Origin: a virus
Taxonomy: Duplodnaviria; Caudoviricetes
Direction: 5' to 3' (one strand)
Length of the DNA: 32,490 bases
Virus record (IMG/VR): IMGVR_UViG_3300005662_000008
Coordinates: 1 to 32,490 of that record
Shown here: piece after piece, positions 17,361 through 32,490 of the stretch
How the letters are laid out: each line of letters opens with the position of its first letter
How positions within the stretch are numbered: position 1 is the first letter of the stretch
Program-made: the position numbers and the translations under genes
Notes under the pieces: model-generated
The model's input: only the letters and a program-made list of their open reading frames with translations
What the model was told of the DNA's origin: nothing
Databases searched by the model: none

Positions 17361-17691
17361 CGAACCACGTGGGCTTAGTGAGCGGTTGACCAGCCGTGGT
17401 GATGTCGGTGGTCTCTACGTAGCCCCGCGCCTTGCCTTTGGTCTTCAGGTAGAAGATGGTGGCTGTGGCATTGCCCTCTTGGATGAGCTTGTGGAGGTTG
17501 CTCTCAGCGAAGTCCACGGCCACATCGGCCAGCTCCTTTACTGCGGACGCATACTCCGCATCCTCCCGTAGCCAGCGGTAGTGGGTATCGCGGCTCACAT
17601 TCACGGCCTTGCAGGCGGTCGTTACCACTCCTAGGCTCTGCTCTAGCGCCTTAAGCAGTTTCTCTTTTATTGTGTCTGATTTGTCAGGCAT
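17347..17691 (-). CDS. terS: Terminase small subunit (HTH-type)
   Basis: LGVVTTACKAVNVSRDTHYRWL helix-turn-helix; ATIFYLKTKGKARGYVE; upstream of TerL. Confidence 0.75.
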   Translation of the reverse strand: MPDKSDTIKEKLLKALEQSLGVVTTACKAVNVSRDTHYRWLREDAEYASAVKELADVAVDFAESNLHKLIQEGNATATIFYLKTKGKARGYVETTDITTAGQPLTKPTWFDETA

Positions 17692-18499: not shown

Positions 18500-19977
18500 C
18501 GGAGTAATTTGAGAGCGTTTAAAGCACTTTCGCTGGATTGAACTATGCGGTGACTAGGCAGATTGAGAACACGCGTAGAAATGGCCTTCAAATGCCTCTC
18601 TGACTGGTTGCTGCCCCTTGCTGCCCGGCCCTCCGCTCCGTCACCTGCGATTCGGATGACCACGGGGTCCGCCTTGGCGATGAACTTGCTGTTGGAGAAT
18701 CGGTCGCCCTCGAACACGGCTAGCTTCCGTGATTTCTTCACGTAGGCGAGGAACGGGTCTAGGTCGCGCATCACCGCCATAGACAGGCGGTCGCTGCCCT
18801 CAAAGGTGGTGCCATCGTACTTACCCACGACGATGAAGTCGTCCGTCTCCACCCAGTGCACCATGCCCATGCGGTACTTGCGCGCCTCGCTCGTGAGGAG
18901 CTGCTTCATCACCCACGTCTTCCCCACCCCGCAGTTGCCTGTGATGAGTACGCACTGCCTCAACCACGGCTTGCTGCTGACCTTGAATCCTTCTTCTTCC
19001 ATCATGATGACCTCTCCGGTTAGGCGGTAGTGATTCTGTTTCTCCGGGCATAGGCCCCGGTCTAGGAGGTTGTCCTCTAGACGCAGGTGCTTAGGCAGCG
19101 CCCACTTACGGGCCTCCCAAAATACGCTAAAGTCCTCCGTAGGGCATAGCTGCTCGGCCTTCCGGATGCGGTCATGGAACATGTCGTTGTAGACGTTCGG
19201 GTACCTCCGGTTTATCCGGTGCCATCCTTTGTAGCAGCACAGGGTGGTCTCTAGGGTGAAGTACGATACGTCCGGGTGACCTATCCGCTCGCGCGCCTCG
19301 AGCAGGAGGGCCTCCCCTTCCCGCTCCAGCCAGTCGAGGTGGGGTGTGTAGTCCACGCGGTCCTGCTTCCACCAGTCGAGGTCGTCACGCCCTAGGACCT
19401 TGCACAGCCCGTTGCGGTGGCTCTTGCTCCCTGAGATGTCGTCTAGGAACAGCTGGTCGCAATCGAGGGGGATACCCGCAATACGGAGGTATTCCAAGTA
19501 GCTGAAGGTAGACAGCCGCCCGAAGGTGAGGTACTGGTTAGACACCACGTCCCACACTGCCCTGAAATTAGCGTGTTCCGTCCCTACGCACAGGTCTCCG
19601 TAGAACGCGTATTGGGTCTTCCCGTTAAGCGCCGCTTGATAGCTCTCCACGGCCTCCACGAACCTCATCCGCGTGTACCTGCGGTCCGTATCGAACGGCA
19701 GCCGCTCGCGATGGTGGGTGAACCACGCCCGCAGGTCCTCGATGTCAGCTGGAGGGAGCGGGTACTCCTTCCAAATACGGTAGGTGGTCAGAGGGTGCTG
19801 GGTGCAGCCGTTGATGAACGTGAACCACAGCGCCTGCTCCTTGGTCATACCCAGCTCCTTGAACAGGTACGGGAAGACGTAGTACACCCCCCCGGCATGA
19901 GCGCGGTACTTGAGGTGGTACTCGTAGAAGCGGAGGAACGTCTCGCGCCTGTGCTCGTGTAGGCGGTAGTCCATCAC
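18481..19977 (-). CDS. Amino acid:DNA transferase (aGPT-Pplase2-like) fused to a C-terminal P-loop 5-hydroxymethylpyrimidine DNA kinase
   Basis: N-domain MDYRL..RRETF, FGRLSTFSYLEYL, DDISGSKSHRNGLC, ETTLCCYK; C-domain (from ~aa 340) ITGNCGVGKT, GKYDGTTFEGSDRLS, FEGDRF. Confidence 0.82.
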   Translation of the reverse strand: MMDYRLHEHRRETFLRFYEYHLKYRAHAGGVYYVFPYLFKELGMTKEQALWFTFINGCTQHPLTTYRIWKEYPLPPADIEDLRAWFTHHRERLPFDTDRRYTRMRFVEAVESYQAALNGKTQYAFYGDLCVGTEHANFRAVWDVVSNQYLTFGRLSTFSYLEYLRIAGIPLDCDQLFLDDISGSKSHRNGLCKVLGRDDLDWWKQDRVDYTPHLDWLEREGEALLLEARERIGHPDVSYFTLETTLCCYKGWHRINRRYPNVYNDMFHDRIRKAEQLCPTEDFSVFWEARKWALPKHLRLEDNLLDRGLCPEKQNHYRLTGEVIMMEEEGFKVSSKPWLRQCVLITGNCGVGKTWVMKQLLTSEARKYRMGMVHWVETDDFIVVGKYDGTTFEGSDRLSMAVMRDLDPFLAYVKKSRKLAVFEGDRFSNSKFIAKADPVVIRIAGDGAEGRAARGSNQSERHLKAISTRVLNLPSHRIVQSSESALNALKLLRCEYSS

Positions 19978-20909
19978 ATCACGTCACTGCCTACAATCCA
20001 AAAGCAGGTAGTAGGGGTCAGGTACTCAGGCGCCCGCTCCTTGAGGTAGCGGATGCACTTGCCCTCGTAACGGGGGTGGAATCGGATGTCGCCGATGGCT
20101 TCACGCATCTCCTGCTGGTAGGTGCAGTACCCGGTGCCGTTCAGGTTCAGGTAAACCATGTCGTATTTCGCGTTCTCGCTAGCGAAATTGAAGTCAAAAT
20201 ACTCGTCCGTGTCAAGCCCTAGGTTCACCTCAACGACGGCACGGAGCCTCCTCCGAACGTACCCGATGTCATTGCTGCCCATGTTGCCGATGCCCATCAG
20301 CACGATGCGCTTCAACCCCGGCGGTGGGTACATCATGATGCCGTAGAGGATGCTCGTCACGCTGTTGCAGCTGCCGCACGGGATGATTAGGGTCTCCACG
20401 TCCTCCGGTATGTTCATCACCTGCCACGCGCCTACGCGGTGAAATCCCTCTATGTCCCTAAATGAGTTCTTCTCTAGGTCGAGGGTGATGTTGGTCTCTA
20501 GGTAGCGGAACCCCTCCCATGCGAGCGACGCCTTACGCGCCTGCGCCCCGCACGCCTGAGCGTACCCGACCCGGCTGGAGACGATGTGCGCTCCAAACTC
20601 GTGCGCCATGCGGAGGTACTTGTGCTCTAGCGGCTTGCGGACCCCGCTTACGATGTAGCAACCCACGTTGTAGTGGCGGCACGCTGCGGCTATGAACGCG
20701 TGCTGTGGACTTTGGCTGACGCTACCGCTAGCCACGCCCTTCAGGTTACCCTCGTCGTACCACTTGTCGACTAGGTAGATGCACTGCCGGAGCTTGCTTC
20801 CGTTGATGTTGCCGTACCCTAGCGGAGCGAACTTGTCGTCCCGCTTGAAGTACATGCCCCCGTGCCGTTCAACCGGGGTTAGGTCCCTCAGTTTTGACCC
20901 CCACGTCAT
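19974..20909 (-). CDS. PLP-dependent enzyme (fold II), putative DNA-adduct decarboxylase
   Basis: LTPVE...FKRDD...NGSKLRQ (PLP lysine); IPCGSCNS phosphate loop; FHPRYEGK; FWIVG. Confidence 0.82.
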   Translation of the reverse strand: MTWGSKLRDLTPVERHGGMYFKRDDKFAPLGYGNINGSKLRQCIYLVDKWYDEGNLKGVASGSVSQSPQHAFIAAACRHYNVGCYIVSGVRKPLEHKYLRMAHEFGAHIVSSRVGYAQACGAQARKASLAWEGFRYLETNITLDLEKNSFRDIEGFHRVGAWQVMNIPEDVETLIIPCGSCNSVTSILYGIMMYPPPGLKRIVLMGIGNMGSNDIGYVRRRLRAVVEVNLGLDTDEYFDFNFASENAKYDMVYLNLNGTGYCTYQQEMREAIGDIRFHPRYEGKCIRYLKERAPEYLTPTTCFWIVGSDVM

Positions 20910-21502
20910 TCGCCTAGCTCGTCTCGGAGCAGGGTGAGTAGCGCCATCCCCACATCGAAGTTGCGCCTGTTGGCTTCTTTCACTAACTCGTATGCCTCTT
21001 GAAAGAGGTCATTAGGGAAGTTGATGAGGATGCCCCGCTCGGTGCTCTCCGCTATCTTGGTTACGCGCTCGTCTATGCCGCTGAACTCGTCTGAATCCAA
21101 TACCGTGTAGTCCGCATCGACCTCCGGCACCCACACGTGTAGGCCCCAGTCGTTCAGCTGGACAGCGTCCCACGTGTTGCTGAGCATGTCCCAGTCCCAC
21201 TCCCCATAGCTGACGTTGTCCTTGACCACAAACTGCTTGCGCTGCTCCTCAGTCCAGCCCTCGGCTACGATGACAGGCACCTCTTTGAACTTCAGCTCCT
21301 CGAGCGCCTTCAACCGCATGTTGCCCCCTAGCGCCACGTGGTCCTCATCAACCACGATAGGTCGCTTCCACAACATCTCCGGGAACTCCTTTAGGGACTT
21401 GACCAGCTGGCGGTACTTCTCGTCCCGGATGACGCGCGGGTTGTCCGGGTTAGGCTTGATTTGGCTCAGGGGTAGGGTCTGAATCATCGCAGGTGTGTTC
21501 AT
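20906..21502 (-). CDS. ParB/Srx-like N-terminal domain protein
   Basis: IKPNPDNPRVI, RPIVVDED...GGNMRLKAL, FVVKDNVSYGEWD; no ParA nearby. Confidence 0.85.
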   Translation of the reverse strand: MNTPAMIQTLPLSQIKPNPDNPRVIRDEKYRQLVKSLKEFPEMLWKRPIVVDEDHVALGGNMRLKALEELKFKEVPVIVAEGWTEEQRKQFVVKDNVSYGEWDWDMLSNTWDAVQLNDWGLHVWVPEVDADYTVLDSDEFSGIDERVTKIAESTERGILINFPNDLFQEAYELVKEANRRNFDVGMALLTLLRDELGE

Positions 21503-21869
21503 AGATGGTTTTGAGTTCGTTCAGTACGCGTATCATGCACGAGGGGCAGCGCGTGTACTCCTGCCTCCTACCGGTGTACCGCTGGTAGAGGTCGATGGCT
21601 AGGTGCTGGGTTGCCGCTGTGATGGTGTCGTTGAGGGTGATGGCCGCTAGGTGCTGCTCGTAGATGCGCTTGTCTACGGGAGCGAAGGTGCGGTAGTACG
21701 GGAACAGGAGGTTGAGGGCGGTGCGCCGCTCGTCACACCCGCAGTCGCTACCGGCAATGGCCTTAACGACCGCCTTAACCCCGGTGGCGGTAGTGATGGC
21801 GTCGATGGTGTCACCTAGGCCCTTGGCCTTTCTGCGCCGCGTGGGTTTGCTTGATTGCGTCTCTGACAT
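21450..21869 (-). CDS. Conserved hypothetical protein with Cys motifs
   Basis: KGLGDTI...TGVKAVVK...DCGCDERR and CPSC. Confidence 0.7.
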   Translation of the reverse strand: MSETQSSKPTRRRKAKGLGDTIDAITTATGVKAVVKAIAGSDCGCDERRTALNLLFPYYRTFAPVDKRIYEQHLAAITLNDTITAATQHLAIDLYQRYTGRRQEYTRCPSCMIRVLNELKTIYEHTCDDSDPTPEPNQA

Positions 21870-22350
21870 GCTTGATGGCCTTATAGATAGTAGTTCGGCT
21901 GATTCCGGTCTCCTTGGCGAGGGTGTTTAGGGAGTGTCCGTGAGCAACATACACCATAAACACCATCCGCTCAAAATAGGGGTACCGCTCCAACTGCTTC
22001 TCTACAAAGTTACACAGCGCCTCTCTACGTTCCCACTCGCCATCGTCGGGTGTGCTCCACTCCTCTATCTCGTAAGCGGCCGCTCGGTGGCGTTCAACCT
22101 GCTTGCGGTACTTGTAGTGCCATGGGCTGGTCTTGCTGTTGTACTGGTTCATCATGATGCGTGCTATCCAGTACCGCATCTGACCTCGTTCAATCAGGCC
22201 CACCATCCGACCCCGGTCACTCTCGTACAGGATGACCATCACCTCGTGTGCGAGGTCGTCTGCGTCGTGGCGGTTACCCCGCGTGACGGCAACCGCCATC
22301 TTGACGATGGCATCGTAGTTCGAGGTGACGTATTTGTCCAGTGGGTCCAC
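21811..22350 (-). CDS. ECF-type sigma-70-like factor (probable late/middle gene activator)
   Basis: Region 2-like DADDLAHEV...YWIARIMMN; region 4 HTH SLNTLAKETGISRTTIYKAI; start uncertain (GTG 22350 or ATG 22425). Confidence 0.75.
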   Translation of the reverse strand: MDPLDKYVTSNYDAIVKMAVAVTRGNRHDADDLAHEVMVILYESDRGRMVGLIERGQMRYWIARIMMNQYNSKTSPWHYKYRKQVERHRAAAYEIEEWSTPDDGEWERREALCNFVEKQLERYPYFERMVFMVYVAHGHSLNTLAKETGISRTTIYKAIKHVRDAIKQTHAAQKGQGPR

Positions 22351-22453
22351 GTAGAGAAGTATTAAAACAGGCCCTTTGTGGTGGTCAAAAAATGGCCTCG
22401 GAACGCGTTGATTCTCATAGAACAAGCACTTCTCAAGAAGAATAGCCGAGCGG

Positions 22454-22927
22454 TTACTCCGAGCTAGATGATTGATTCTTGCCTAGAGAAAATGCCTCTC
22501 CGTTACTCTCTAGTTCACGGACTTTCGCCCTGAATTCAGCTATCATCGTCTCTAGGTCGTGGGTGCTGAATCGAGCGCTTTGGTTACTCCTCACCTGAAC
22601 CGCCCATGCCGTGCCGGGGCCGTACTTGCGGTCCAAGTTCAACCCAAACTGGTACTGGTGACCTGCGTTGGTGAGGTTGCAGTGCTTACACTGCGGCTTG
22701 ACGTTGAGCGGGTCCCAGCGTGTGGCGTACTTGGCCCTCGTTTGGAAGTGGCCCGCGTCCATCTCCTTCCAGTGCTTCACGGCACCACAGGTCCAGCACT
22801 GCTGGCGTCCAAACGAGTCAGCCCCCGACAGCCGCACCCATTGACTGAATGCGGTATCGAGGGCTGCTACTAGTTTGCTGCGGCTTACTTGTCGTCGCTT
22901 GGGGAGTCGGGCTTGAAGGTGGGCCAT
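22454..22927 (-). CDS. ninG: NinG/Rap-like endonuclease
   Basis: LDTAFSQWVRL, CWTCG, DAGHF, TRWDPLNVKPQCKHCN. Confidence 0.85.
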   Translation of the reverse strand: MAHLQARLPKRRQVSRSKLVAALDTAFSQWVRLSGADSFGRQQCWTCGAVKHWKEMDAGHFQTRAKYATRWDPLNVKPQCKHCNLTNAGHQYQFGLNLDRKYGPGTAWAVQVRSNQSARFSTHDLETMIAEFRAKVRELESNGEAFSLGKNQSSSSE

Positions 22928-23508
22928 ATACCTATCTCTTTGAGTTCAGCGTCGCTGAGGGTGATAGGCTCAAACTTAGGCCTTAACTCGCTAACCCGCT
23001 TCAGGTTTGGGTCCGGGGCCACGCGATGCATGCGCTCGAGCACGTCCGCCCGGTACTCGCCCTCGTACGCGCGGAACGCGTCCATGAGTTCGCGGGTGCG
23101 GAAGGTCCCGAACAGCTTAGGCAGGAGCTTGCCCCGCCGGATGAGGTCGCACACTACGCACACCTCCTCCATCTTCAGCGCTGGGAACTCCGCTAGGAGC
23201 GCATCGCACGCTGTGATGAGGTCGTCTGCATCCTGAAGGGTGTTAGTGGCGCCTACGTCCTTGACGAGCCTGCCGATTTGCAGGGCCAACCACGCCCGCA
23301 TAGTGGACGGGTCCACCTTAACCGCCCGCGCTAACGAGGTGCCTCCCTGCCACGCGCTCGTGGGTGTGAGTTCCCGCCGCACAGCGGAGGCTGCCTCACC
23401 CCCCGCCAGTAGCCCAGTCGCGGAGGGTGTCAACATCGAAGCCAGCTCCGGGGAGGCCCCCCTTGTGCTTAGCTGGTTTGTCAACTGGGAAAATACCTTG
23501 GTATCCAT
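22885..23508 (-). CDS. Hypothetical protein, possible helicase-loader/replication accessory
   Basis: 207 aa directly downstream of and overlapping the initiator; function inferred from position only. Confidence 0.5.
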   Translation of the reverse strand: MDTKVFSQLTNQLSTRGASPELASMLTPSATGLLAGGEAASAVRRELTPTSAWQGGTSLARAVKVDPSTMRAWLALQIGRLVKDVGATNTLQDADDLITACDALLAEFPALKMEEVCVVCDLIRRGKLLPKLFGTFRTRELMDAFRAYEGEYRADVLERMHRVAPDPNLKRVSELRPKFEPITLSDAELKEIGIWPTFKPDSPSDDK

Positions 23509-24154
23509 TGGCTATAGAGTTTTGAATCATGGCGATGGCGACGCGCACATCGCCGCCGCTCTCTAGTTGTAGCTTGTGGAGGGCTGCTTGCTCCCCCCGC
23601 TCCGTGTACGCGCGGATGTTGCGCTCCCGGCGGTCCTTCTTCCACTCGGACCACAAGGCTGCAAACCCATCATCATCCCACGGGAGTTGAACTTGGTTTT
23701 TTACTGGTTCTTCTATTGTGTTTCTTACTTGGTATTGGTTTGGTCGTTCGCCAAAATGCATTTGGTCGTTTGCCAAAATGGATTTCGGCGTTTGACCAAA
23801 TGGATTTGGTGATTCGCCAAATTGGGGCAGCGCTAGGTCGTAGATAGCCCCCACCGGGGCTGTGATGGTGTACCACTTCGTCCGGTCCATACCCATGCGG
23901 TTGAACTGGGACACCTCTATGGCCGAATCCTTCTCTAGGTTCCTGAGCACCCTACGTATCTGCTCAGCCGTCCAGTAGGGGAAGAACACGCTAAAGGCCC
24001 GTGCGCTGTTGTATGTCCACACCCGACCCTCGTGGAGGTTGAGTCCGTTCGCTTGGTTGTAGACCACCCAGTAGACGAGGTGATGGAGCATGATTGCCCC
24101 ATCGACCCCGTACCGCTGAGCAGCTACAGCGTTGAAATAAACGTCTCGCCTCAT
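23396..24154 (-). CDS. Replication initiator protein (lambda O-like organisation)
   Basis: N-terminal wHTH-type YGVDGAIMLHHLVYW...WTYNS...FPYWTAEQIRR; internal iterons; C-terminal WSEWKKDR...SIANGYQGIF. Confidence 0.8.
   Translation of the reverse strand: MRRDVYFNAVAAQRYGVDGAIMLHHLVYWVVYNQANGLNLHEGRVWTYNSARAFSVFFPYWTAEQIRRVLRNLEKDSAIEVSQFNRMGMDRTKWYTITAPVGAIYDLALPQFGESPNPFGQTPKSILANDQMHFGERPNQYQVRNTIEEPVKNQVQLPWDDDGFAALWSEWKKDRRERNIRAYTERGEQAALHKLQLESGGDVRVAIAMIQNSIANGYQGIFPVDKPAKHKGGLPGAGFDVDTLRDWATGGG
23739..23826. repeat. Four 22-bp iterons; probable replication origin
   Basis: TTTGGTCGTTCGCCAAAATGCA / TTTGGTCGTTTGCCAAAATGGA / TTTCGGCGTTTGACCAAATGGA / TTTGGTGATTCGCCAAATTGGG, with an AT-rich tract next to them at ~23690-23738. 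Confidence 0.85.
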
Positions 24155-24378
24155 TTGAGTGGCCTCTCCGGTAACGAATAGTGATGCCTTAGGACAACGT
24201 CTACCACTTCGGTAATCGTTACTCTCCCGGTACCGGAGATGGCTTTCGTGTGCTTGAGCATGGGCAGCGGGTTGCGCTGAACCCAGTTGGTTACCGTCAT
24301 AGCGGATACCCCAAGCTGCTCGGCCATCCTCGCCTGCGTGCCATACACGCTCCTAATCATTAGCTTAAGGTCGCTCAT
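24151..24378 (-). CDS. Cro/XRE-like HTH protein
   Basis: TQARMAEQLGVSAMTVTNWV; likely start MSDLKL at 24378. Confidence 0.75.
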   Translation of the reverse strand: MSDLKLMIRSVYGTQARMAEQLGVSAMTVTNWVQRNPLPMLKHTKAISGTGRVTITEVVDVVLRHHYSLPERPLK

Positions 24379-24805
24379 CGCTCGGCGGGATTGCAGCCAA
24401 CGCGTCACGCATCCGGAGCAGCGTGCGGGCTTGGTTCATCAACGTGGCTTCGCTATCGACCGGAGTGCCAGCGGCCATGTTCCACTGAATGGCCTGACCC
24501 AAGGCCCATGACGCGTCTATGCGCGCCTGAAGGTTTGGGTCTGACGCTCTCGCGCCCCCGCCCCCGAACCCGCCTCGCGGCGCGTTAGGGTCCTGCTTGC
24601 TGAGCTTGAGCCGGGGTGTGCCCCGGAACTCGCCAGTGACCTCGTACCACACGGTATCCCCCTCCTTCCATGGTGGGGGCTGGGTCTTTGAGGAGGCTTC
24701 ACCCTCCACCCCGTCTGCGAATGCGACGGAGTATTTGAACATGCGTCCGTACTGGCCATCGTAGTGGCCCATTCCCTGTACTTGGGTAATTGTGGTCTGT
24801 GTCAT
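24365..24805 (-). CDS. Putative single-stranded DNA-binding (OB-fold-like) protein
   Basis: Likely start MTQTT at 24805; beta-rich N-domain, Gly-rich linker (PRGGFGGGG) and helical tail; upstream of the initiator. Confidence 0.45.
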   Translation of the reverse strand: MTQTTITQVQGMGHYDGQYGRMFKYSVAFADGVEGEASSKTQPPPWKEGDTVWYEVTGEFRGTPRLKLSKQDPNAPRGGFGGGGARASDPNLQARIDASWALGQAIQWNMAAGTPVDSEATLMNQARTLLRMRDALAAIPPSDERP

Positions 24806-24844
24806 TGCTATGACTGATTTTAGGTGTTTAACAAAGGTTTCAAT

Positions 24845-24942
24845 ACTCTTCTGCAAGAGTTTTGCATCTTCTCACAAGAGTTTCAAACTCTTGCAACGCT
24901 AGGTTTCTATTCACGGAACTCTTGCAAACTCTTGCAGCGAGT
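24845..24942. repeat. Phased AAGAGT/ACTCTT array C
   Basis: Hexamers at 24845, 24855, 24865*, 24876, 24887, [25-bp core similar to array B], 24918, 24928, 24937* (* degenerate). Confidence 0.88.
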
Positions 24943-25273
24943 CCTTAATTCCTTCTTGTTCCTCTACGGCCCAATCTATCCATTGGACCAAGGGGTAAAC
25001 GAACTTGTTGAAGCCACTCAGCGGGATGTCCGGTTCAGGGGTGACGAAGTACATCTCCCGATGGGTATCGGTGGAGTAGTAGCCTAGGTGGGTGTAATGG
25101 CCCTGTTTCCAGCAGGCCATCAACCAATGGTAGTCGCGAGCGTGCCGCTCCGTGATGAAGTACAGCCGGGCAGTGTCCGTGCTGAAAATCGTAGGCAGGT
25201 ACCGATAGACCCCGGTAGGGCCGTCCGGGTCGTCCTTCCACACCCAGTTAGGTGGGGCTATTTGACTGGCCAT
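24911..25273 (-). CDS. Hypothetical protein
   Basis: 120 aa; A/C-rich leader; 3' end overlaps array C. Confidence 0.65.
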   Translation of the reverse strand: MASQIAPPNWVWKDDPDGPTGVYRYLPTIFSTDTARLYFITERHARDYHWLMACWKQGHYTHLGYYSTDTHREMYFVTPEPDIPLSGFNKFVYPLVQWIDWAVEEQEGIKDSLQEFARVP

Positions 25274-25532
25274 GGGTGTTGGTTGAGTTGACGTAATCGA
25301 AGTCGGTCAGTAGCGCCTCCATCGCCGCGTGCGCATCGCTCTCTATGACGTAGAGCAGGTACCTAAGGCGCTCGATAGGGTTGGCCCTAGGGTCACCCTC
25401 TACCTTCGCCATGCGCCTGCCAGCCAGTTCCAGTTTGCGCAGCGCGTCATTCCACTCCTGACGTGCTCTCACGCGTTCTGAGGTAGCGAGGTTACCTCCC
25501 ATGGGGTCGTGTGGTTCGTTGGTGTAGCTCAT
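25248..25532 (-). CDS. Hypothetical protein
   Basis: 94 aa; ATGA-coupled to the upstream gene. Confidence 0.65.
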   Translation of the reverse strand: MSYTNEPHDPMGGNLATSERVRARQEWNDALRKLELAGRRMAKVEGDPRANPIERLRYLLYVIESDAHAAMEALLTDFDYVNSTNTHGQSNSPT

Positions 25533-25930
25533 GATACAATCGTTGATTCTTGGCTAGTTTCTGCGTCCCGTTCTTTCTTGGCCTGCTCAGCGCGCTCGAT
25601 GTCGGCGTTGAGGTCGGCCGCTATGTGGCCCCTCACCCAGTCCACCACCTCGTGCCACGACACCCGGTCGTTTAGCTCAGTGATGATGACGCCTCCAATG
25701 GGGTCCTTGCGCAGGTTGCGCGTGTCGTCGGTCCATAGCTCGTGGACCTTGATGATGACCCGTTCATGGAACTCCCAGTCATGCGAGCGCACCCGCTTCG
25801 CGCTCAGGTAGTCACACAAGAAGGGCAGTAGTTGGTTCTTCCACATCCAGCGCTGCATAGCGTGGGTTCCGAGGTCGATGACGCAGGAGTACTTGTGTAG
25901 CTCCTTGTAGTTAGGTCCGTTGTGGTTCAT
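25529..25930 (-). CDS. Hypothetical protein
   Basis: 133 aa; coupled overlaps on both sides. Confidence 0.7.
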   Translation of the reverse strand: MNHNGPNYKELHKYSCVIDLGTHAMQRWMWKNQLLPFLCDYLSAKRVRSHDWEFHERVIIKVHELWTDDTRNLRKDPIGGVIITELNDRVSWHEVVDWVRGHIAADLNADIERAEQAKKERDAETSQESTIVS

Positions 25931-26073
25931 GGTTCAGTGGTTTGAATGCACCAGTTCTCAAGGTAGTTTAGGGCGTTCTCTGCCTGCTTGATGTGCAGGG
26001 CAGCGTAGTCGTCAGCTGGCTCTACGGTAGCGATGAATGACCGCAGAATCTCTAGGGCACGTTCCTGTGTCAT
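25927..26073 (-). CDS. Small hypothetical protein (48 aa, MTQERALEILRSFIATVEPADDY...)
   Basis: Manual translation; TAATG and ATGA overlaps with both neighbours; absent from the ORF track. Confidence 0.65.
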   Translation of the reverse strand: MTQERALEILRSFIATVEPADDYAALHIKQAENALNYLENWCIQTTEP

Positions 26074-26468
26074 TAGCTGAACAGGGTTTGGGCTTCGTTG
26101 CTGGCCTCCGTGGGCTTCGCGGTTACGCCGTAGAACTGCTTAGCGCGTACCCACATGTCCGTTACCGCAGCGAGTGCCTTCGCCTCCTCCTCGTACCCGT
26201 ACGAGCGAGCGCACTGCACGACCCCGTAGAGGGAATCGAGCATCGAGCAAGCCAGCTCGTAATTGCCGCCTAGATAGGCGTCCATCCCAGTGTAGAGCAC
26301 GCACAGCCGGGTGTTGGCCTTGATGAGCTGGTGCATAGCCAGCTTGCGCTTGTGCGCTGGGGTCTTGTTGATTTCGGCGTAGAGCGCTGCGAGCGCTTCA
26401 GCGGTCAGGGTGGCGGCACGCTGTACGTGGCTATCCACCGGGGTCAGTAGTTGATTCATTACATCCAT
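26073..26468 (-). CDS. Hypothetical protein (helical)
   Basis: 131 aa in a tightly packed operon. Confidence 0.65.
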   Translation of the reverse strand: MDVMNQLLTPVDSHVQRAATLTAEALAALYAEINKTPAHKRKLAMHQLIKANTRLCVLYTGMDAYLGGNYELACSMLDSLYGVVQCARSYGYEEEAKALAAVTDMWVRAKQFYGVTAKPTEASNEAQTLFS

Positions 26469-26662
26469 GGGTTTAACTGGTTCTCGACTTCTAGTAACTC
26501 CCGCATCGCATCGGCTGCGGCTTCGCGGGCAAGGTGCAGGCGCCTGCTCTGCTCGCCCTCGTGTATGCTCCGCTCCATGCCTAGGCGGAACATCAGCTCA
26601 GCTACGTCGCTCTGAAGGCCGATGACGTTAGCGAGCAGCTGGCGTACTTCGTTCTCAGGCAT
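26459..26662 (-). CDS. Hypothetical protein
   Basis: 67 aa, coiled-coil-like, overlapping neighbours. Confidence 0.6.
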   Translation of the reverse strand: MPENEVRQLLANVIGLQSDVAELMFRLGMERSIHEGEQSRRLHLAREAAADAMRELLEVENQLNPWM

Positions 26663-27128
26663 CGGCTCGGGGTGTGGTGTCGCTTACGATATCCTCCAGC
26701 TCGGCGCATAGCTCGATGAGGTCGTCGGAGGTCATGTCATACAGGTCATTGAGGTGGATGCCGTCGAACATGTCCTCCCACCGCACGTCTACCTGTGTCT
26801 CGATGGTGATTTCCCCGCTGACCCGGCCATAGCCGCCCGTGAGGTCCTCCTGCACCTCCACGTCCACGCTAATGCGCTCCTGCGTGCTCGTGAGGGCGTC
26901 CCGGACATCCTTAACCGCCTCTTGGTAGACGTGCTTGCACACCGCCTCGAGGTGCTGCCGGGTTAACAGGATGCCGTTCTCGCCACTTTCTTGACCTTGG
27001 CTAGGGGCGGCGTTAGACATGGCTGCGAGCGCCTCTGTGAGGGCTGCAATTTGCTTGCTGGCGTGGTCCAGCGCTTGAACCAAGTGGTTCATTGTGGCCG
27101 TGTGGCCTTCGTTAGTGGTTCCCATCAT
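26655..27128 (-). CDS. Acidic hypothetical protein
   Basis: 157 aa (alternative start 27092); Asp/Glu-rich C-terminal half. Confidence 0.65.
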   Translation of the reverse strand: MMGTTNEGHTATMNHLVQALDHASKQIAALTEALAAMSNAAPSQGQESGENGILLTRQHLEAVCKHVYQEAVKDVRDALTSTQERISVDVEVQEDLTGGYGRVSGEITIETQVDVRWEDMFDGIHLNDLYDMTSDDLIELCAELEDIVSDTTPRADA

Positions 27129-27150
27129 TGCTTGATTTAGGGAGGTTAAT

Positions 27151-27175
27151 GGGGAGCAGGACCCTCCTGCCCCCC
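27151..27175 (-). terminator. GC-rich stem-loop after ardC (terminator or processing/stability hairpin)
   Basis: Minus RNA GGGGGGCAGGA-GGG-UCCUGCUCCCC; weak U tail. Confidence 0.4.
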
Positions 27176-27183
27176 GGTTAGAA

Positions 27184-28092
27184 TTAGTTGCCTAGGATGT
27201 GCTCTACGGCTGCGCTCGCCTGCTGCGCCGCGTACACGACCATGCGAGGGTGGTCCTTGAGCTGCTTGACCCAGCCGTTGATGTAGGCCTGTGATTGGTC
27301 GGCGCGCCACTCGACTCCGGCCAGTGCGCTGAGGTACTCGGCGCCGATTTCGGCTACCAGCTCTTCCTGAGCGTAGCTGTCGGTGCCGAAGCCCTGCACG
27401 TCCACTACGCCTGCGCGCTTCAGGCGGGTCGTGTGACCCGTGCTGTGAATCATCTCGTGGAACAGCGTGTGGGCGTAAGCCTCTCCCGCCACGAAGGTGG
27501 TGGCCTCGGGCATCTGAATCAGGTCAGCAGAGGGGCGGTAGTAGGCCTTATTGCCCCCGTGGTTCAGGGTGGGGCGGTTAGCGTAGCCCTCCCACACCCA
27601 CTCCCATCCGGTGGCTGGTGTGAACTCGTCGCTCGTGGGGGCGACGCGACGCGGGTCGAGGCCCTCAACCTGAGCTACGTTGAACACGTTGTAGGAGCGG
27701 AGGGTCCAGCGCTCGTCGCACTCGGACTTCTTGATGCCCGCCTTCTTCAGCTCAGCCTCGGAGTACCACTTACCCGTCTCAGTGTGGCAGTAGGACACTA
27801 CCCAGTAGATGACGCAGGTGCTCTTGCTGCCCTTAGCGACCTTCCCGCCTGCCTCGCTCGCCTGCTTGAAGGTCATCCACTCGTTAGCGGTGAACCCGAA
27901 GTCAGTCATAGCTGCGTTCAGGAGGAAGACGTTGACACCCCGGTAGCGGGTCTTGGTAGCCCAGTTCATCGGAGCGTCATCGGCGCCGCCCCAAGGACGG
28001 AACCAAGACAGGCCGCGCTGCTGAAGGCCCTCGATGACACGCTGGGTGATTGACTCGTAGAGGTCGGTGCGGGTGGTGGTGGTGGTAGCCAT
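27184..28092 (-). CDS. ardC: ArdC-like antirestriction protein (ssDNA-binding domain plus zincin-like domain)
   Basis: LYESITQRVIEGL..WFRPW, YRGVNVFLL, WMTFKQA...GGKVAKG, YNVFNVAQVEG, AYYRPSADLIQMP, HEMIHSTGH, YAQEELVAEIGA. Confidence 0.92.
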   Translation of the reverse strand: MATTTTTRTDLYESITQRVIEGLQQRGLSWFRPWGGADDAPMNWATKTRYRGVNVFLLNAAMTDFGFTANEWMTFKQASEAGGKVAKGSKSTCVIYWVVSYCHTETGKWYSEAELKKAGIKKSECDERWTLRSYNVFNVAQVEGLDPRRVAPTSDEFTPATGWEWVWEGYANRPTLNHGGNKAYYRPSADLIQMPEATTFVAGEAYAHTLFHEMIHSTGHTTRLKRAGVVDVQGFGTDSYAQEELVAEIGAEYLSALAGVEWRADQSQAYINGWVKQLKDHPRMVVYAAQQASAAVEHILGN

Positions 28093-28125
28093 GGCTGGTG
28101 TGGTTGGTTGGTTTGTTTGACGGCA

Positions 28126-28158
28126 CTAAGATGGGGTGATTGCGAACGGAAAACCAAA
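28126..28158 (-). promoter_or_regulatory. Bacteroidota-type promoter for ardC (variant)
   Basis: TTTG-N21-CATCTTAG with an upstream A/T tract; same AATTTGG context and spacing as the 29544-29576 promoter. Confidence 0.55.
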
Positions 28159-28193
28159 TTTTCCTTTGACTTTTTTTTGCTTTCCTAGCCCGC

Positions 28194-28466
28194 TTAGCGG
28201 ATGCGGACCATGATTGCAATGGCTAGCGCTTGGAGGCTAGGATGTAGCTTGACTCCAGCCGCTCGTGCCTCGTGCACGTACTGCCAAACCACGTGCTTGA
28301 TAGGGAAGGGACACTCCATCAGGAAGTCCAGCTTCGCGGCTGCGAGCAGGCCCGTGTCCTGCGCTACGTGTAGGTTGAGGACCTCCGCGAACTGCTGGCG
28401 GTCCGCGCACCAGTTCCAGTCCTCTGCGAGGTCCCGGAGGCGCTGTGGGTCGAGTGCGTTAATCAC
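28194..28466 (-). CDS. Early hypothetical protein
   Basis: 90 aa; GTGA overlap with the upstream gene. Confidence 0.55.
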   Translation of the reverse strand: MINALDPQRLRDLAEDWNWCADRQQFAEVLNLHVAQDTGLLAAAKLDFLMECPFPIKHVVWQYVHEARAAGVKLHPSLQALAIAIMVRIR

Positions 28467-28738
28467 CGGAGGTCAACGTATACGTGAACAGGGCAGCAGG
28501 TCGAGTAGTGGTCACCCACTACGCACCGGGTGAAGTGCGGTTCATAGTCGCACTCTAGGTACACCCGTGCACGCGCAGCCTCTACCGTCATCTCGTGGTT
28601 CCAAGCCACGCTCTCTACGATGCCCTTGAGCCAGTCGTTGAGCTGTACGGATTCGGTTTCGTTCAGGCCGGAGTAGTCGGCGTTGACGATGGCACTAGAG
28701 TAGTGCTCGCCTACTGAGAAGGTATCGAATAGTTCCAT
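28463..28738 (-). CDS. Early hypothetical protein with Cys-containing C-terminus
   Basis: 91 aa; SAIVNADYSGLNETE...EPHFTRC. Confidence 0.7.
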   Translation of the reverse strand: MELFDTFSVGEHYSSAIVNADYSGLNETESVQLNDWLKGIVESVAWNHEMTVEAARARVYLECDYEPHFTRCVVGDHYSTCCPVHVYVDLR

Positions 28739-28770
28739 GGTAGGGGTTGTTCTAGGTGAAGGTGAGAAAG

Positions 28771-29004
28771 TTAAATCTCGTTAGCCTTTCGGTTCAGCTC
28801 ATCCTTTACGTAAGGGCACGCTTCAAGGAAGCGGGTCCACTCAGCATCCGGGTTAACTTCAAGCGTCATGTCGCTGTACTCGATGGTCAGGTACTTGACG
28901 AACTCGATGCGTGCCCACGCTACCGTGGGGGTGAAAGACATCTCGAAGGCAATGTCACTCAGGTGTGAAGCGACGAGGAGGCGGAGGGAGGTGGTGTAGG
29001 ACAT
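28771..29004 (-). CDS. Early hypothetical protein
   Basis: 77 aa; conserved leader GTCAAAC-N6-AACCACACCA. Confidence 0.7.
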   Translation of the reverse strand: MSYTTSLRLLVASHLSDIAFEMSFTPTVAWARIEFVKYLTIEYSDMTLEVNPDAEWTRFLEACPYVKDELNRKANEI

Positions 29005-29039
29005 TGTGGTGTGGTTGAGGGTGTTTGACTGGTTGGTGA

Positions 29040-29255
29040 TTAGAGGGCCGGGATGAAGCTGCGAGCGAAGTCCAGTGCGTCTGAGACGACTACGTCAGTG
29101 ATGTCAACGCTGTAGTACTCGCAGGCCAGCTCCAGTGCGTGGTGGAATCGGTCCATGGTAGGCGTCAGTCCGTTGACGTGCTTCCATGTGAACAGGATGT
29201 CGCTTGCGTGTTGGGCTGCGAGCGCTTCGGTCGAGGTGAGGTTGATGAAGTCCAT
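29040..29255 (-). CDS. Early hypothetical protein
   Basis: 71 aa; conserved leader GTCAAAC-N5-AACCACACCA. Confidence 0.7.
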   Translation of the reverse strand: MDFINLTSTEALAAQHASDILFTWKHVNGLTPTMDRFHHALELACEYYSVDITDVVVSDALDFARSFIPAL

Positions 29256-29287
29256 GGTGGTGTGGTTGAGAGGTTTGACAGGTTTGA

Positions 29288-29515
29288 TTAGCCAGCGATG
29301 GTGTAGACGGGGCGGATAGCGTAGCCGCGAACCCCGTTGTAGTCGGTACGTGGGTAGTACGCCTCGAAGTAGCCCTCCGGCACGCTGTCGTAGCGAACCG
29401 CGATGTACTCCTCGCCGTGCTTGATGTCGGTGAATACAACTACGCCTTGCTCGTACTGGTTAGTGTCAGGGTTGACTCCGATGACGCGCTGGCCGGGGGT
29501 GAAGGGGTGGCTCAT
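29288..29515 (-). CDS. First early gene, SH3-like small protein
   Basis: Likely start MSHPFTPGQRVIG at 29515, directly after the promoter and AACCACACA leader. Confidence 0.7.
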   Translation of the reverse strand: MSHPFTPGQRVIGVNPDTNQYEQGVVVFTDIKHGEEYIAVRYDSVPEGYFEAYYPRTDYNGVRGYAIRPVYTIAG

Positions 29516-29543
29516 TGTGTGGTTGTTTGTTGTTTGAACACCG

Positions 29544-29576
29544 CAAAGATAAGCCCTAAACCAAATACAATCCAAA
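29544..29576 (-). promoter_or_regulatory. Consensus Bacteroidota sigma-ABfr-type early promoter
   Basis: TTTG (-33)-N21-TATCTTTG (-7, TAnnTTTG), with upstream A/T tracts at 29577-29597. Confidence 0.8.
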
Positions 29577-29628
29577 TTTATTTTTGAGAAATTTTTGGTT
29601 TGCCTATGCTGCTAGGCGTTTGCAGGGC

Positions 29629-29678
29629 AAAAAAAAATCAGCCCCCACTGGCGTCGAATACGCTCGGGAGGGCTGATT
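29629..29678 (-). terminator. Intrinsic terminator separating late/lysis and early regions
   Basis: AAUCAGCCC...GGGCUGAUU stem with inner GCGU/ACGC pairing, running into a U9 tract. Confidence 0.8.
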
Positions 29679-29712
29679 AGGGTCAAACAAACTGGGAACC
29701 ACACCAGTTCTA
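29629..29712 (-). ncRNA. Candidate ~85-nt antisense sRNA against early-gene leaders
   Basis: Candidate promoter CTTG-N19-TACCTTCG (29715-29745); hairpin AACUGG-UGUGGUUC-CCAGUU; complementary to leaders at 28095-28121, 29007-29029, 29258-29279; ends in the terminator. Confidence 0.55.
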
Positions 29713-29723
29713 GGCGAAGGTAG

Positions 29724-29954
29724 CTATTCCTCCATGAAACTCAAGCACAGGGGCAGGACCCCTACCGCGCACATAGCCACAGCCTCCCACGTTACCCCGT
29801 GGGCCACTACGTCATTGCAGGCGGTAGCCGCAATCACGCCGCCTACGGTGCGCTTAGCGGACCAGCGCTTGAGGTCGCCCTTGGTCTTGAAGGCCTCCGT
29901 GATGTCGAGCGCGCTTATACTAGATAACACACGCGTCCATGGGCGAGCGCTCAT
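29724..29954 (-). CDS. Small membrane protein, holin-like
   Basis: 76 aa with two hydrophobic segments; lysis module. Confidence 0.55.
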   Translation of the reverse strand: MSARPWTRVLSSISALDITEAFKTKGDLKRWSAKRTVGGVIAATACNDVVAHGVTWEAVAMCAVGVLPLCLSFMEE

Positions 29955-30112
29955 CGCTTACGGCGGTCGGGGACGAACCCGTCTATCAGGCGGTCGATAA
30001 GCGTGAAGACCTTGTTGTCGTGCTCCGTAGGGGTGATGTTGACGATGACCTTGAACAGGGCCATAGTGGCGAGCAGCAGCTCAGCCCAGTGGTTGATTAG
30101 GATGTCTTTCAT
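29951..30112 (-). CDS. Small membrane protein, holin-like (53 aa, MKDILINHWAELLLATMALFKVIVNITPTEHDNK...)
   Basis: Manual translation; ATGA overlaps on both sides; one TM segment and a basic tail; absent from the ORF track. Confidence 0.7.
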   Translation of the reverse strand: MKDILINHWAELLLATMALFKVIVNITPTEHDNKVFTLIDRLIDGFVPDRRKR

Positions 30113-30537
30113 GGGTTAGAGATTAGGTGGGGGAACTTAGCGGAAACCTTGAAGCTAGGGCAGGCCTTAGCATCGGTGTAGTCGTTGTGCCCAGCTACCG
30201 CGAAGTGTTTGAGAAACGCGTGCCTGAGCGTGTGCACGAGGGCGGTGAAGCTGGCCTGCTGTGCGGGGTTCATCGTGTCCTTGGGCTTGCCCTTGGGGTC
30301 CACCCCTCCGACGTACACGACACCGATTTGATGGTTGTGGCCCTTCGTGTGCGAACCCGTGCGCGTGAGCGGGCGACCCGGCTCAATCACCCCATCGGCC
30401 CGGATGACGTAATGGTACCCGACGTCTGACCACCCCCTGTCGCGGTGCCACTGGCGGATGGTCGCAGCCCCAATTTTGGGGTCCGGCTGACTGGCTGTGC
30501 AGTGGAGAATGATGGTGTCTGCGGGGATGATTTCCAT
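30109..30537 (-). CDS. Endolysin, N-acetylmuramoyl-L-alanine amidase (T7 lysozyme-like)
   Basis: IILHCTAS, WHRDRGWSDVGYHYVI, GSHTKGHN, GHND...KACPSF. Confidence 0.93.
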   Translation of the reverse strand: MEIIPADTIILHCTASQPDPKIGAATIRQWHRDRGWSDVGYHYVIRADGVIEPGRPLTRTGSHTKGHNHQIGVVYVGGVDPKGKPKDTMNPAQQASFTALVHTLRHAFLKHFAVAGHNDYTDAKACPSFKVSAKFPHLISNP

Positions 30538-30547
30538 GGGGTCCTAA

Positions 30548-30656
30548 TTTGCCGTTTGAGGTACTTTTTCTGCCGTTTCCGGCATTCTAGCCGTTTCTCT
30601 AGGGCTTCGGTTATTTCTTCTGAGAAGTGCTTATTGGCTGATTCTCTAGGCGTTAC
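30548..30656. repeat. Non-coding element family 2, copy 2
   Basis: Colinear with 7092-7200. Confidence 0.75.
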
Positions 30657-30892
30657 AAACGTGTTTTTCTTGGGGCGGGTTCATGGCTGTCAAGGCCGTT
30701 GCGGGCCAACATCAGCTTGATTTCGGTCACCAACGACACCAGTTCACGCAGGGTTTGGCGCACCTCATCGTGGCCCGCCTCCAGCGCATCCACCCGACCT
30801 CTCAGCCGGGTAAGCTCGTTGTTCACCTTCACCCACTGCGCCACCAATGCCAGCAGCAAGGTCAGCGCCACACCCAACGTGTCGAGGTTCAT
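30653..30892 (-). CDS. Membrane-anchored coiled-coil protein (lysis-associated?)
   Basis: N-terminal TM segment followed by heptad repeats; upstream of the endolysin. Confidence 0.6.
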   Translation of the reverse strand: MNLDTLGVALTLLLALVAQWVKVNNELTRLRGRVDALEAGHDEVRQTLRELVSLVTEIKLMLARNGLDSHEPAPRKTRL

Positions 30893-31101
30893 GACTGCGG
30901 CTTGAGGTCATCGGGCCAATCCGGCGGCACCCCCGTGACGGGTCGATAGAAGATGTCTTCAGTGTCCTCGTACCAGTCGCCGATGTGAATGTTGAGGTCA
31001 ACATCTTGGACCACCGCGTCATGCGGGTGAGGGTAGTTTGGGGCTTCGTCTGCGACGATGCGGTCAATGACGTAGTTCCCCTTGATTACGACGTATATCA
31101 T
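30889..31101 (-). CDS. Small acidic protein, probable fibre/adhesin chaperone
   Basis: Likely start MIYVVIKGNYVIDRIV at 31101 (TAATG overlap); IGDWY...FYRP; follows the Gly-rich gene. Confidence 0.6.
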   Translation of the reverse strand: MIYVVIKGNYVIDRIVADEAPNYPHPHDAVVQDVDLNIHIGDWYEDTEDIFYRPVTGVPPDWPDDLKPQS

Positions 31102-32060
31102 TAGATAGTGTATTCGATTACAAAGCAAAGACCTCCAGCCCCGCTACCACCCGCACCACTAGCGTTACCATTCCGGGAACCACCCCCTCCTGAACCCGCT
31201 CCTCCGTACAAGCCCCCGTTGCCCCCGTTGCCACCTGTGCCAGTGATGGAGCTTGCGCCACTGCCGCCACTGACACCTAGCTTGTAACTCGGTGATAGGG
31301 CCGCGATACGGGGAGGCCATACCATGCGGTCTACCGCGTTATTGGTGCCGTTCAACCCGTTCGCGCCCGCTGCTCCGCCTCCCTGAATCCTTGTGGTGGC
31401 GGTTCCATTGAACAAGTAAAACTGGTTGCCTTGGTTGCCTGTACCGATGGAGTTTGCGGTGTTGTTGCCGCCTCCTGATGGCGCTCCTAATACGTTGACT
31501 ATTTGGTCTCCGAAGTTGGTTGCCAATGACTGCGACTGACCCGAAGAACCCTGTCCTCCAGCAGCGCTGGCGCTTCTGCCCTCTGAACCCGGAAAGCTAC
31601 CCCAACCATAGGCGGGAGTGTGGCTATTAATCTGACGTTGCCCGCCGCCCAATCGGTTAGTTGCGCCTAACCCTCCCAATGCCATACAATGCGACCCAAA
31701 TGACGTGTTGCCGCCTGTGCCTCCATTGTTGCCTACGGTGCTTGCCGTTAACTGCGGTGTGCCCCCCGTTCCCCCTGCTCCGATAGTTACGGTCTCGGTA
31801 GCGCCTAGTGAAGCTGCCATGACCTGTGTCCACGAGATAGATGGCGCGCCTCCCCCGCCTCCGCCGGGTGCTGCAACGCCACTTCCGAACTGCCCGCCCG
31901 ATGCGCCCCCACCGCCTGCGCCTAGACACAGAACCTCGATAAAGACAAGGCCCGATGGCTTCGTCCACGTGGTGCCACTTACGTATTCCCGTAGGGTTTG
32001 GGTGAGGGTCCCGCCGCCCCCGCTGGGGTTGTTCGCGGGCAACGCGAATTCGCCTATCAT
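31101..32060 (-). CDS. Glycine-rich tail adhesin/receptor-binding-like protein
   Basis: TWTKPSG...EVLCLGAGGGGASG, TVTIGAGGTGG, GGNTSFGS and C-terminal GGSGAGGLCFVIEY. Confidence 0.75.
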   Translation of the reverse strand: MIGEFALPANNPSGGGGTLTQTLREYVSGTTWTKPSGLVFIEVLCLGAGGGGASGGQFGSGVAAPGGGGGGAPSISWTQVMAASLGATETVTIGAGGTGGTPQLTASTVGNNGGTGGNTSFGSHCMALGGLGATNRLGGGQRQINSHTPAYGWGSFPGSEGRSASAAGGQGSSGQSQSLATNFGDQIVNVLGAPSGGGNNTANSIGTGNQGNQFYLFNGTATTRIQGGGAAGANGLNGTNNAVDRMVWPPRIAALSPSYKLGVSGGSGASSITGTGGNGGNGGLYGGAGSGGGGSRNGNASGAGGSGAGGLCFVIEYTI

Positions 32061-32490
32061 TGCTTGTAGATGTTCAGTGTGACCGTAATGCTAGCCGCCG
32101 GAAGGTTCGTGCTGTAAATCTTGACTGCACCTGCGCTGCTGTCCGTCTGTGGCAACATCTGCGCGGTACGTATGGTGGCGGCACTAGCGTTGTCCGGGAT
32201 GATGTTGACGATGCTAGTGGAGGTAATGGCCGCGTCAGATATGCTCGCCTCGTAGACACCCGACACCAAGCTCCACGCGCCTGTGGCGACGGTCTTCCCG
32301 GTAACTTGAGTGATGGACGGGATGGTGGGCTTGTTCAGGATTTGCGCATCCCCACTGACTGCGGTCCAATCTGCATTGACATTTACCTCAGCCCCGGCTG
32401 CGATGCCGTCTAGCTTGGTTTTGTCAGACGCGGACATTGAACCCGCTACACTCGTGGTGGCCGCCGTAATGCTGATGGCCGGGGTGGTCC
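32057..32490 (-). CDS. Tail fibre protein, C-terminal part (continuation of 1..1097)
   Basis: KLDGIAAGAEVNVNADWTAVSGDAQILNKP followed by a beta-rich terminal domain; in frame across the join. Confidence 0.8.
   Translation of the reverse strand, partial: TTPAISITAATTSVAGSMSASDKTKLDGIAAGAEVNVNADWTAVSGDAQILNKPTIPSITQVTGKTVATGAWSLVSGVYEASISDAAITSTSIVNIIPDNASAATIRTAQMLPQTDSSAGAVKIYSTNLPAASITVTLNIYKQ
32391..32490. repeat. Terminal direct repeat (assembly overlap), copy 2
   Basis: Identical to 1-100. Confidence 0.97.

Follow-up and report, generated by a model that had tools for sequence, protein, structure and literature searches.

How lytic phages without a visible repressor shut off their early and anti-restriction genes is poorly understood, and the phage small RNAs covered in the consulted sections of a recent review are mostly cis-antisense, linked to lysogeny or directed at host mRNAs (PMC12197685). 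The virus record IMGVR_UViG_3300005662_000008 raises this question at a single short stretch of DNA, where an inverted copy of the motif that precedes the early genes, including the anti-restriction gene ardC, lies between the lysis genes and the early promoter. An initial annotation had proposed that this copy belongs to a free-standing RNA that pairs with the early leaders in trans. Does it encode an RNA that silences the phage's own early genes? In what follows, the window is the whole stretch of DNA analysed (32,490 nt), and coordinates without a locus prefix refer to it.

Genome setting of the locus

The window, a complete virus record, has direct terminal repeats and a G+C content of 59%, and its minus strand carries all recognisable genes. 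In order of transcription, tail and lysis genes are followed by the anti-leader unit, the early promoter, small unknown genes and ardC, downstream of which lie genes for a Cro-like helix-turn-helix (HTH) protein, a replication initiator, NinG and a sigma-like protein, and then a DNA-modification cluster, terminase and head genes. The lysis cluster comprises an amidase endolysin (30109-30537, minus strand; Pfam Amidase_2, E 2.5e-12; phrog_822) and two small genes of 53 and 76 amino acids (aa). The second of these, a conserved hydrophobic gene at the end of the cluster (29724-29954, minus), had no Pfam or PHROG match; it has 301 homologues and served as the synteny anchor. The ArdC-family anti-restriction gene occupies 27184-28092 (minus; Pfam ArdcN, E 1.4e-27; MPTase-PolyVal, E 8.7e-33; phrog_7245). 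Elsewhere in the window, 17684-21502 holds a probable DNA hypermodification cluster (Tet_JBP oxygenase, an amino acid:DNA transferase with a P-loop domain, PALP-like and ParB_N), and the replication initiator gene contains four 22-nt direct repeats (23739-23826) that we take to resemble the iterons of a lambdoid origin.

Three features point to a host among the Bacteroidota, namely the canonical -7 box of the early promoter (TATCTTTG, 29544-29551, minus), which is conserved in position in relatives and matches TAnnTTTG, taken here as the Bacteroidota -7 consensus; early-gene leaders that have no obvious Shine-Dalgarno motifs; and a terminase whose best matches in cultured phages (40-41%) were to Parabacteroides and Phocaeicola phages. 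At the DNA level, cultured phages gave no match over the anti-leader unit. A genome scan for prophages returned just four short MAG contigs with mixed labels, which were not counted as host evidence. No integrase or antirepressor family was detected among 47 ORFs (Pfam and PHROGs) and six further ORFs (Pfam). The initial annotation had described the phage as having no obvious CI/integrase module; the integrase part of this stood for the ORFs scanned, and the Pfam scan placed a Cro/CI-like HTH gene of 75 aa at 24151-24378. Its suggestion that the RNA acts as an immunity factor is poorly supported, since no integrase was found and the prophage scan gave so little.

An inverted leader motif within a predicted small RNA

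On the plus strand, positions 29682-29707 consist of an 11-nt block, a 4-nt spacer and a second 11-nt block. Both blocks recur, as had been noted, 5 nt apart in the ardC leader on the minus strand (28121-28095), where they end 2 nt short of the ATG of the gene (28092). The bipartite 11+11 pattern has exactly two occurrences in the window, one per strand, against a first-order Markov expectation of 2.6e-9. Four sense copies of the leader motif stand at early starts (ardC at 28092, and genes 29004, 29255 and 29515), and 29682-29707 is the sole inverted copy. The motif is asymmetric, and its spacer is 4 nt in the inverted copy compared to 5–6 nt in the leaders.

Read from the minus strand, the inverted copy forms part of a predicted non-coding RNA of about 80–85 nt (29629-29712), the 5' end of which was placed from the -7 box. 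The predicted fold of minus-strand 29712-29625 contains a 7-bp hairpin (one G·U) with an 8-nt loop, followed by an 11-bp terminator stem and nine U, with a fold z of -3.36 and 0/200 shuffles folding as well. Seed A (29697-29707, minus) is complementary to the 11 nt nearest the AUG in the ardC leader and to 10 nt in the 29004 and 29255 leaders, while seed B (29682-29692, minus) is complementary to the GUCAAAC-type element that opens the early leaders. About half of the seed region is unpaired in the prediction (0.52), and seed A lies partly within the loop of the predicted hairpin (29689-29710); the earlier placement of the seed in a hairpin loop agrees with this prediction, made for the window's unit, with a stem of 7 bp and not the 6 bp first described.

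The unit starts about 12 nt past the last lysis-cluster gene. The candidate promoter annotated there (CTTG-N19-TACCTTCG, 29745-29715) and the U9 terminator are both present. The candidate -33 box CTTG (29742-29745, minus), to which we assign a putative function, falls inside the final codons of the 76-aa gene, and the candidate -7 box TACCTTCG (29715-29722, minus) is one change from TAnnTTTG, the Bacteroidota housekeeping type. The intrinsic terminator (29629-29678, minus; 11-bp stem and U9) is also the first terminator past the lysis genes. A search of Rfam yielded no family at the gathering threshold and three chance hits only (E 0.52-1.4). One RNA run (share 0.06) aligned to 20000-32490 as five short contigs, none of which covered the unit in this single run.

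Predicted targets among the leaders of the window

Pairing was screened against the 50 gene leaders of the window, with duplex energies calculated before and after correction for accessibility (kcal/mol). The best predicted target was the ardC leader (28093-28121, minus; 11+11 nt), with a duplex energy of -33.7 and a corrected energy of -23.0, the best of the 50. It was followed by the leaders of gene 29004 (29005-29029, minus; 7+10 nt; -27.1, corrected -18.0) and gene 29255 (29256-29279, minus; 7+10 nt; -24.1, corrected -13.6), so that three of the leaders proposed as targets in the initial annotation headed the corrected ranking. The leader of the first early gene, 29515, appears to be a partial target, again as proposed (29516-29537, minus; 8+8 nt; -21.8, corrected -6.1). 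After correction, the top six leaders all belonged to early-region genes, with weak energies at ranks 4–6 (27128, 25930 and 29515; -7.3 to -6.1). The element shared by the early leaders is 22–29 nt long, C/A-rich and predicted to be unpaired.

On raw duplex energy the ardC leader was not unique, as one sense window lay below it (-35.9) and several others came within 1 kcal/mol. Because GC-rich coding windows match the ardC leader on this measure, specificity would reside in exact pairing to unstructured leaders. An 8-nt match at the start of gene 25930, which had also been put forward, does exist but is weak on its own, since the window contains six copies of this 8-mer, spread over both strands.

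Covariation of anti-leader and leaders across relatives

Three close relatives that could be aligned (L008, L009 and L010) were identical to the window over the unit and thus gave no covariation. Two of them (L008 and L010) lack gene 29515 (29288-29515), and as their junction falls within the AACCACAC leader repeat, such repeats also seem to shuffle early genes as cassettes. Since near-identical phages were invariant over the unit, the 76-aa gene was taken as the anchor instead, and relatives were collected through its homologues (best 80 of 292 viral loci) and through lysin and ArdC loci. Briefly, a first set of 90 rows was reduced by 24 (21 without a terminator near the anchor and 3 truncated), and the 66 left were condensed to 35 representatives, of which L269 (false terminator) and L249 (duplicate) were removed by hand, leaving 33 units that include the window itself. 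The gene caller was crude, and three first-ATG positions in this set were corrected by hand. The 40 nt before each terminator were then compared with the first early leader after removal of row and column means, and significance was assessed by a permutation that was not tree-based.

Across the 33 units, the mean pairing energy was -15.6 kcal/mol with the own leader and -12.7 kcal/mol with the leaders of other phages, and 0/100,000 permutations were as extreme (z about -5.4). When one unit was kept for each of 19 clades, z ranged from -3.1 to -4.6 (worst p 0.0025). Units that form an uninterrupted helix of 8 nt or more with their own leader numbered 19/33, compared to 29% of non-own pairs, and a match of that length in the same (sense) orientation occurred in 0/33. 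Helices varied by clade, reaching 12 nt in L213 and running across the start codon in L216, L230, L243 and L262. In the more distant L030 (46% G+C; lysin 50% and ArdC 46% identical), seed B is kept, while the second seed differs and fits the leaders of that phage. A second set of 80 loci, from which 62 were dropped (20 short, 18 duplicates, 15 like the first set and 9 without a terminator), provided 18 new units for replication. Using the two best early leaders per phage, the effect was weaker in these units (own -16.8, other -15.6 kcal/mol; z -2.6, p 0.005). Early leaders paired better than late leaders in 17/29 phages (p 0.011) and 12/17 phages (p 0.045). By these comparisons, the anti-leader covaries with each phage's own leaders, the pattern that the initial annotation had looked to in related phages.

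Much of the pairing reflects GU-rich versus CA-rich composition, as just 12/33 units paired better (p<0.05) than dinucleotide-shuffled versions of themselves. G·U wobbles beside the helices were not enriched (18 observed, 19.1 expected), and this test therefore gives RNA no preference over DNA. Five units (L015, L016, L017, L231 and L265) showed no pairing with the first leader. In L204, L205 and L239 no terminator unit was found at the lysis/early junction, indicating that the element is dispensable in the family.

Promoter box, flipped units and terminator control

A TAnnTT[TCA]G box was located 41–60 nt before the terminator stem in 14/33 units, against 1.0 expected from upstream control windows. 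Overall, the box was present in 23/51 units and faced the other way in 2/51. In a separate screen of 124 ArdC loci, the stretch upstream of each of 85 non-coding terminators was compared with local leaders; seven terminators had z<-3 and none z>+3. Among the seven are L030 and L002, the latter a twin of the window, and one that appears doubtful (L137). The units of L115 (z -3.4) and L074 (z -2.4) are placed opposite the early-gene strand and carry a canonical TATATTTG box, an anti-leader to the phage's own ardC leader and a terminator. That the unit is flipped as a whole in these phages speaks more for a free RNA gene than for an operator or a fold in cis.

Opposite-strand anti-leader units near ardC were recorded on the minus strand at L074:6504-6600, L115:6571-6660, L035:1168-1260 and L033:1851-1930. 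In L068, an unrelated ardC phage with Shine-Dalgarno-type leaders, two stretches (4070-4130 and 4190-4245) are complementary to a repeated early leader, with a hairpin after each. An earlier local-alignment screen of ArdC loci penalised bipartite matches and returned mostly noise; it was used for leads only, and L031, L052, L053 and L060 were inspected.

As a cellular control, we used two genomes related to a MAG labelled Flavobacteriales, in 800 kb of which 49 terminators were found, a small sample that does not represent the real host. The GTTTG/TTTGGT motif was present in 24/33 phage units and 2/49 of these cellular terminators, and the G+T fraction was 0.67 and 0.46, respectively. A general feature of Bacteroidota terminators is ruled out by the 2/49 figure, within the limits of so small a sample from genomes other than the host's. 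A plus-strand gene with the motif as its leader, the possibility against which the initial annotation had set its proposal, was also rejected: the window has no ATG in place, an opposite-facing promoter box occurs in only 2/51 units, and although 40/51 units have an opposite-strand ATG, their longest ORFs have a median of 25 aa and by inspection share no sequence. An invertible promoter between anti-leader and first leader was also considered, but no recombinase was found among the ORFs scanned and no flipped promoter in the listed syntenic units.

Other features came to light around the same junctions. Tandem 9–11-nt repeats, possibly operator arrays or packaging signals, lie just upstream of the early -7 box in L233, L240, L250, L251 and L016. 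In L242, L253, L260 and L264 the first gene seems to be leaderless, starting a few bases past the early -7 box (12 nt from the start of the box in L242 and L253). The window also contains a second inverted pair, formed by 22402-22449 (before the sigma-like gene) and 30607-30654 (before the endolysin), which are 71% complementary over 48 nt (duplex -49.6). L030 has a different inverted pair of roughly 130 nt at the same two places, before the lysin and the sigma-like gene, and no such pair was found there in L232 and L016. This second pair could be an inverted late-promoter copy, or could allow leader-leader RNA pairing that times lysis.

Discussion

Directly supported by the sequences are the complementarity, the position between lysis genes and early promoter, the covariation and the promoter-box enrichment. 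Judged on this comparative evidence the conserved feature is real, and the comparison supports pairing in trans to the phage's own early leaders, a mechanism whose class is itself known. We consider it probable, at roughly two chances in three, that the conserved promoter-box/anti-leader/terminator unit encodes an RNA of ~80 nt that pairs with the phage's own ardC and early leaders and would block their translation. The free-standing, trans-acting RNA of the initial annotation is thus supported by the covariation, by the fixed distance of the promoter box and by the general absence of the motif from cellular terminators. Its view that silencing occurs late in infection is unsupported, the promoter box being of the same host-sigma type as that of the early promoter.

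Transcription would start from the weak, off-consensus TACCTTCG box, and the RNA may also be made as the 3' end of the lysis transcript, with the terminator common to both. Pairing would nucleate at the UGUGGUUC loop and then spread over both seeds, occluding the unstructured A/C-rich initiation region used by Shine-Dalgarno-free Bacteroidota ribosomes, with or without mRNA decay. Initiation in Bacteroidota has been described as relying on upstream adenines and low structure and not on Shine-Dalgarno pairing (PMC6847099), and repression by leader pairing without a Shine-Dalgarno sequence has been reported for GibS (PMC7366714) and FopS (PMC11697453). The promoter shares its host-sigma type with the early promoter but departs from the consensus. 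Accumulation of the RNA would consequently lag behind that of its targets, and we therefore read it as a timer and not strictly as a late switch. Such a slowly accumulating RNA would limit production of the early and anti-restriction proteins to a burst immediately after the DNA enters the cell. As a by-product, a second incoming phage with the same leader type would be silenced as well, making exclusion of superinfecting phages of that leader type plausible.

It is unlikely that the RNA is made but acts mainly on host mRNAs, such as those for an outer-membrane receptor or defence genes, as FopS does. Complementarity to phage leaders would in that case be of secondary importance, since all strong Bacteroidota initiation regions are A/C-rich. 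FopS RNAs share the layout of the unit, repress SusC-type mRNAs and have been reported in a tailed phage (PMC11697453), and a TTCAT anti-start motif is present in 21/33 units. Host targets are also conceivable because, for 23/33 units, the first leader of the same phage is equalled in pairing by over 5% of 310 cellular leaders; for the window, however, 0/310 pair with its seed as well as the ardC or 29004 leaders, an indirect comparison in that the control genomes are not the true host. The difference between own and other leaders would, moreover, be unexpected if the targets were host genes. We regard as equally improbable that there is no separate RNA and that the lysis transcript simply ends in the anti-leader, which folds in cis onto the first early leader when the terminator is read through. 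The best match lies not in the adjacent leader but in the ardC leader 1.6 kb away and, in L189, in a leader 1.9 kb away; the flipped units of L074 and L115 cannot act in cis, and the promoter box is enriched. Consistent with a cis fold are the closeness of the unit to the last lysis-cluster gene (about 12 nt), the predicted pairing of both seeds with the 29515 leader in a read-through transcript, and the 28/51 units that lack the promoter box as defined.

A DNA site has slightly lower odds still. Here the inverted copy would be an extra binding site near the early promoter, within an operator system bound by the product of the Cro-like HTH gene at 24151-24378 or by some other factor of the phage. 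Such a protein is encoded, plasmid ardC regulons are described as relying on DNA elements repeated upstream of their genes (PMC8708921), both this phage and L030 have a second inverted pair that covaries, and an excess of G·U pairs is absent. An operator is harder to reconcile with an asymmetric motif whose spacer differs between the inverted copy (4 nt) and the leaders (5–6 nt), with a pre-terminator copy that is in sense orientation in 0/33 units, with the joint flipping of promoter and terminator along with the unit in L074 and L115, and with pairing that runs over the start codon in the four phages named above. Least probable of all, and in our judgement very unlikely, is that a leader was duplicated in inverted form without any function, or that the copy just reflects the base composition of terminators: one position is kept across many of the 19 clades while changing with the leaders, and the cellular terminators differ from the units both in the motif (2/49 have it) and in their lower G+T content (0.46 vs 0.67). 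Leader repeats do recombine, as the loss of 29515 in L008 and L010 at a junction inside the repeat illustrates, and several relatives have no unit, both of which would fit a sequence without function.

If a trans-acting RNA does silence the early leaders of this phage, the arrangement might be widespread, with Bacteroidota phages giving their early and anti-defence genes a private leader and encoding a coevolving anti-leader RNA as a kind of barcode layer. We hold this extension tentatively, as a little more apt to fail than to hold. Anti-leader look-alikes in unrelated ardC phages (L074, L115, L035 and L068) suggest many independent origins. Were it true, a single short RNA would be enough to silence an entire early regulon with no repressor protein involved, and would exclude superinfecting phages with the same barcode. 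A description of such an RNA was not found in the literature searched, which consisted mainly of the main texts of open-access papers. A single RNA that silences several of its own phage's early leaders would be a directly testable mechanism for transient ArdC expression, and natural matched seed-leader pairs could be used to study Bacteroidota translation initiation without Shine-Dalgarno pairing.

Comparison with known systems

FopS (RF04319) and GibS of Bacteroides thetaiotaomicron are described as having a housekeeping-type promoter, a single-stranded GU-rich 5' part, an intrinsic terminator and a length of 65–70 nt (PMC11697453, PMC7366714). One FopS derives from a 3' UTR, and a FopS sequence in a tailed phage was reported in the same work (PMC11697453). 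The unit resembles this layout, by prediction only, in its -7 box (one change off), its seed (0.52 unpaired) and its terminator, at about 80 nt compared to 65–70 nt. The FopS covariance model gave 0 matches at E<=10 in the window genome, whereas the B. thetaiotaomicron control was matched, and Rfam, including FopS, gave none in 10 related loci at E<=1. FopS is presented as a multi-copy paralogous family that represses host SusC-type mRNAs and binds RbpB (PMC11697453), whereas this unit is single copy in its genome, it is predicted to target early leaders of the phage that encodes it, and its seed varies from phage to phage with those leaders.

The initial annotation had drawn its parallel with phage antisense RNAs. 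C4 RNA uses bipartite short seeds, and the P4 CI RNA is a phage RNA that represses phage genes by short pairing. Like C4, the unit is predicted to be a phage-encoded RNA with two short seeds, here with 11+11 and 7+10 complementarity to phage leaders. The C4 antisense RNA of P1 and P7 (RF01695) lies in the operon that it controls (c4-icd-ant) and, according to the sections consulted, serves lysogeny (PMC8198154); the present unit, in contrast, ends at a separate terminator ahead of the early promoter, has several distinct predicted targets and lies in a genome in which no antirepressor or integrase family was found. RF01695 gave 0 matches at the gathering threshold and at E<=10, in a search for which none of 14 control genomes passed the cut-off, so that it had no strong positive control. 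Kinship to P1 C4 was not borne out, and the Bacteroides RNAs GibS and FopS are closer models.

GcvB of enteric bacteria, which is host-encoded and Hfq-dependent, uses a GU-rich seed to silence CA-rich translation enhancers on several mRNAs. The unit differs in being phage-encoded and without an Rfam match. Outside small RNAs, EGeRS are described as grouping ardC and other establishment genes of pLS20-family plasmids into a transiently expressed regulon, EGeRS1 being structured regions of 420–750 bp and EGeRS2 promoters flanked by Reg operators (PMC8708921). The purpose at ardC appears similar, but the element shared here is an unstructured leader of 22–29 nt and the proposed regulator is an RNA. 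The arrangement of a repeat just before the starts of non-structural genes together with one inverted, gene-less copy recalls the SAS of Cluster K mycobacteriophages, which have a 13-bp G/A-rich consensus and a function called unknown, the word 'antisense' being absent from the main text of that report (PMC3203893). In this phage the leaders are, by inspection, C/A-rich and do not resemble that consensus, the probable host belongs to another phylum, and the inverted copy comes with a candidate promoter, a terminator and covariation support; an anti-leader RNA could explain orphan inverted copies such as that of the Cluster K SAS. Taken together, the best reading is that the unit, a member of neither the FopS nor the C4 family, encodes a FopS/GibS-like trans-acting RNA that would silence the early leaders of its own phage.
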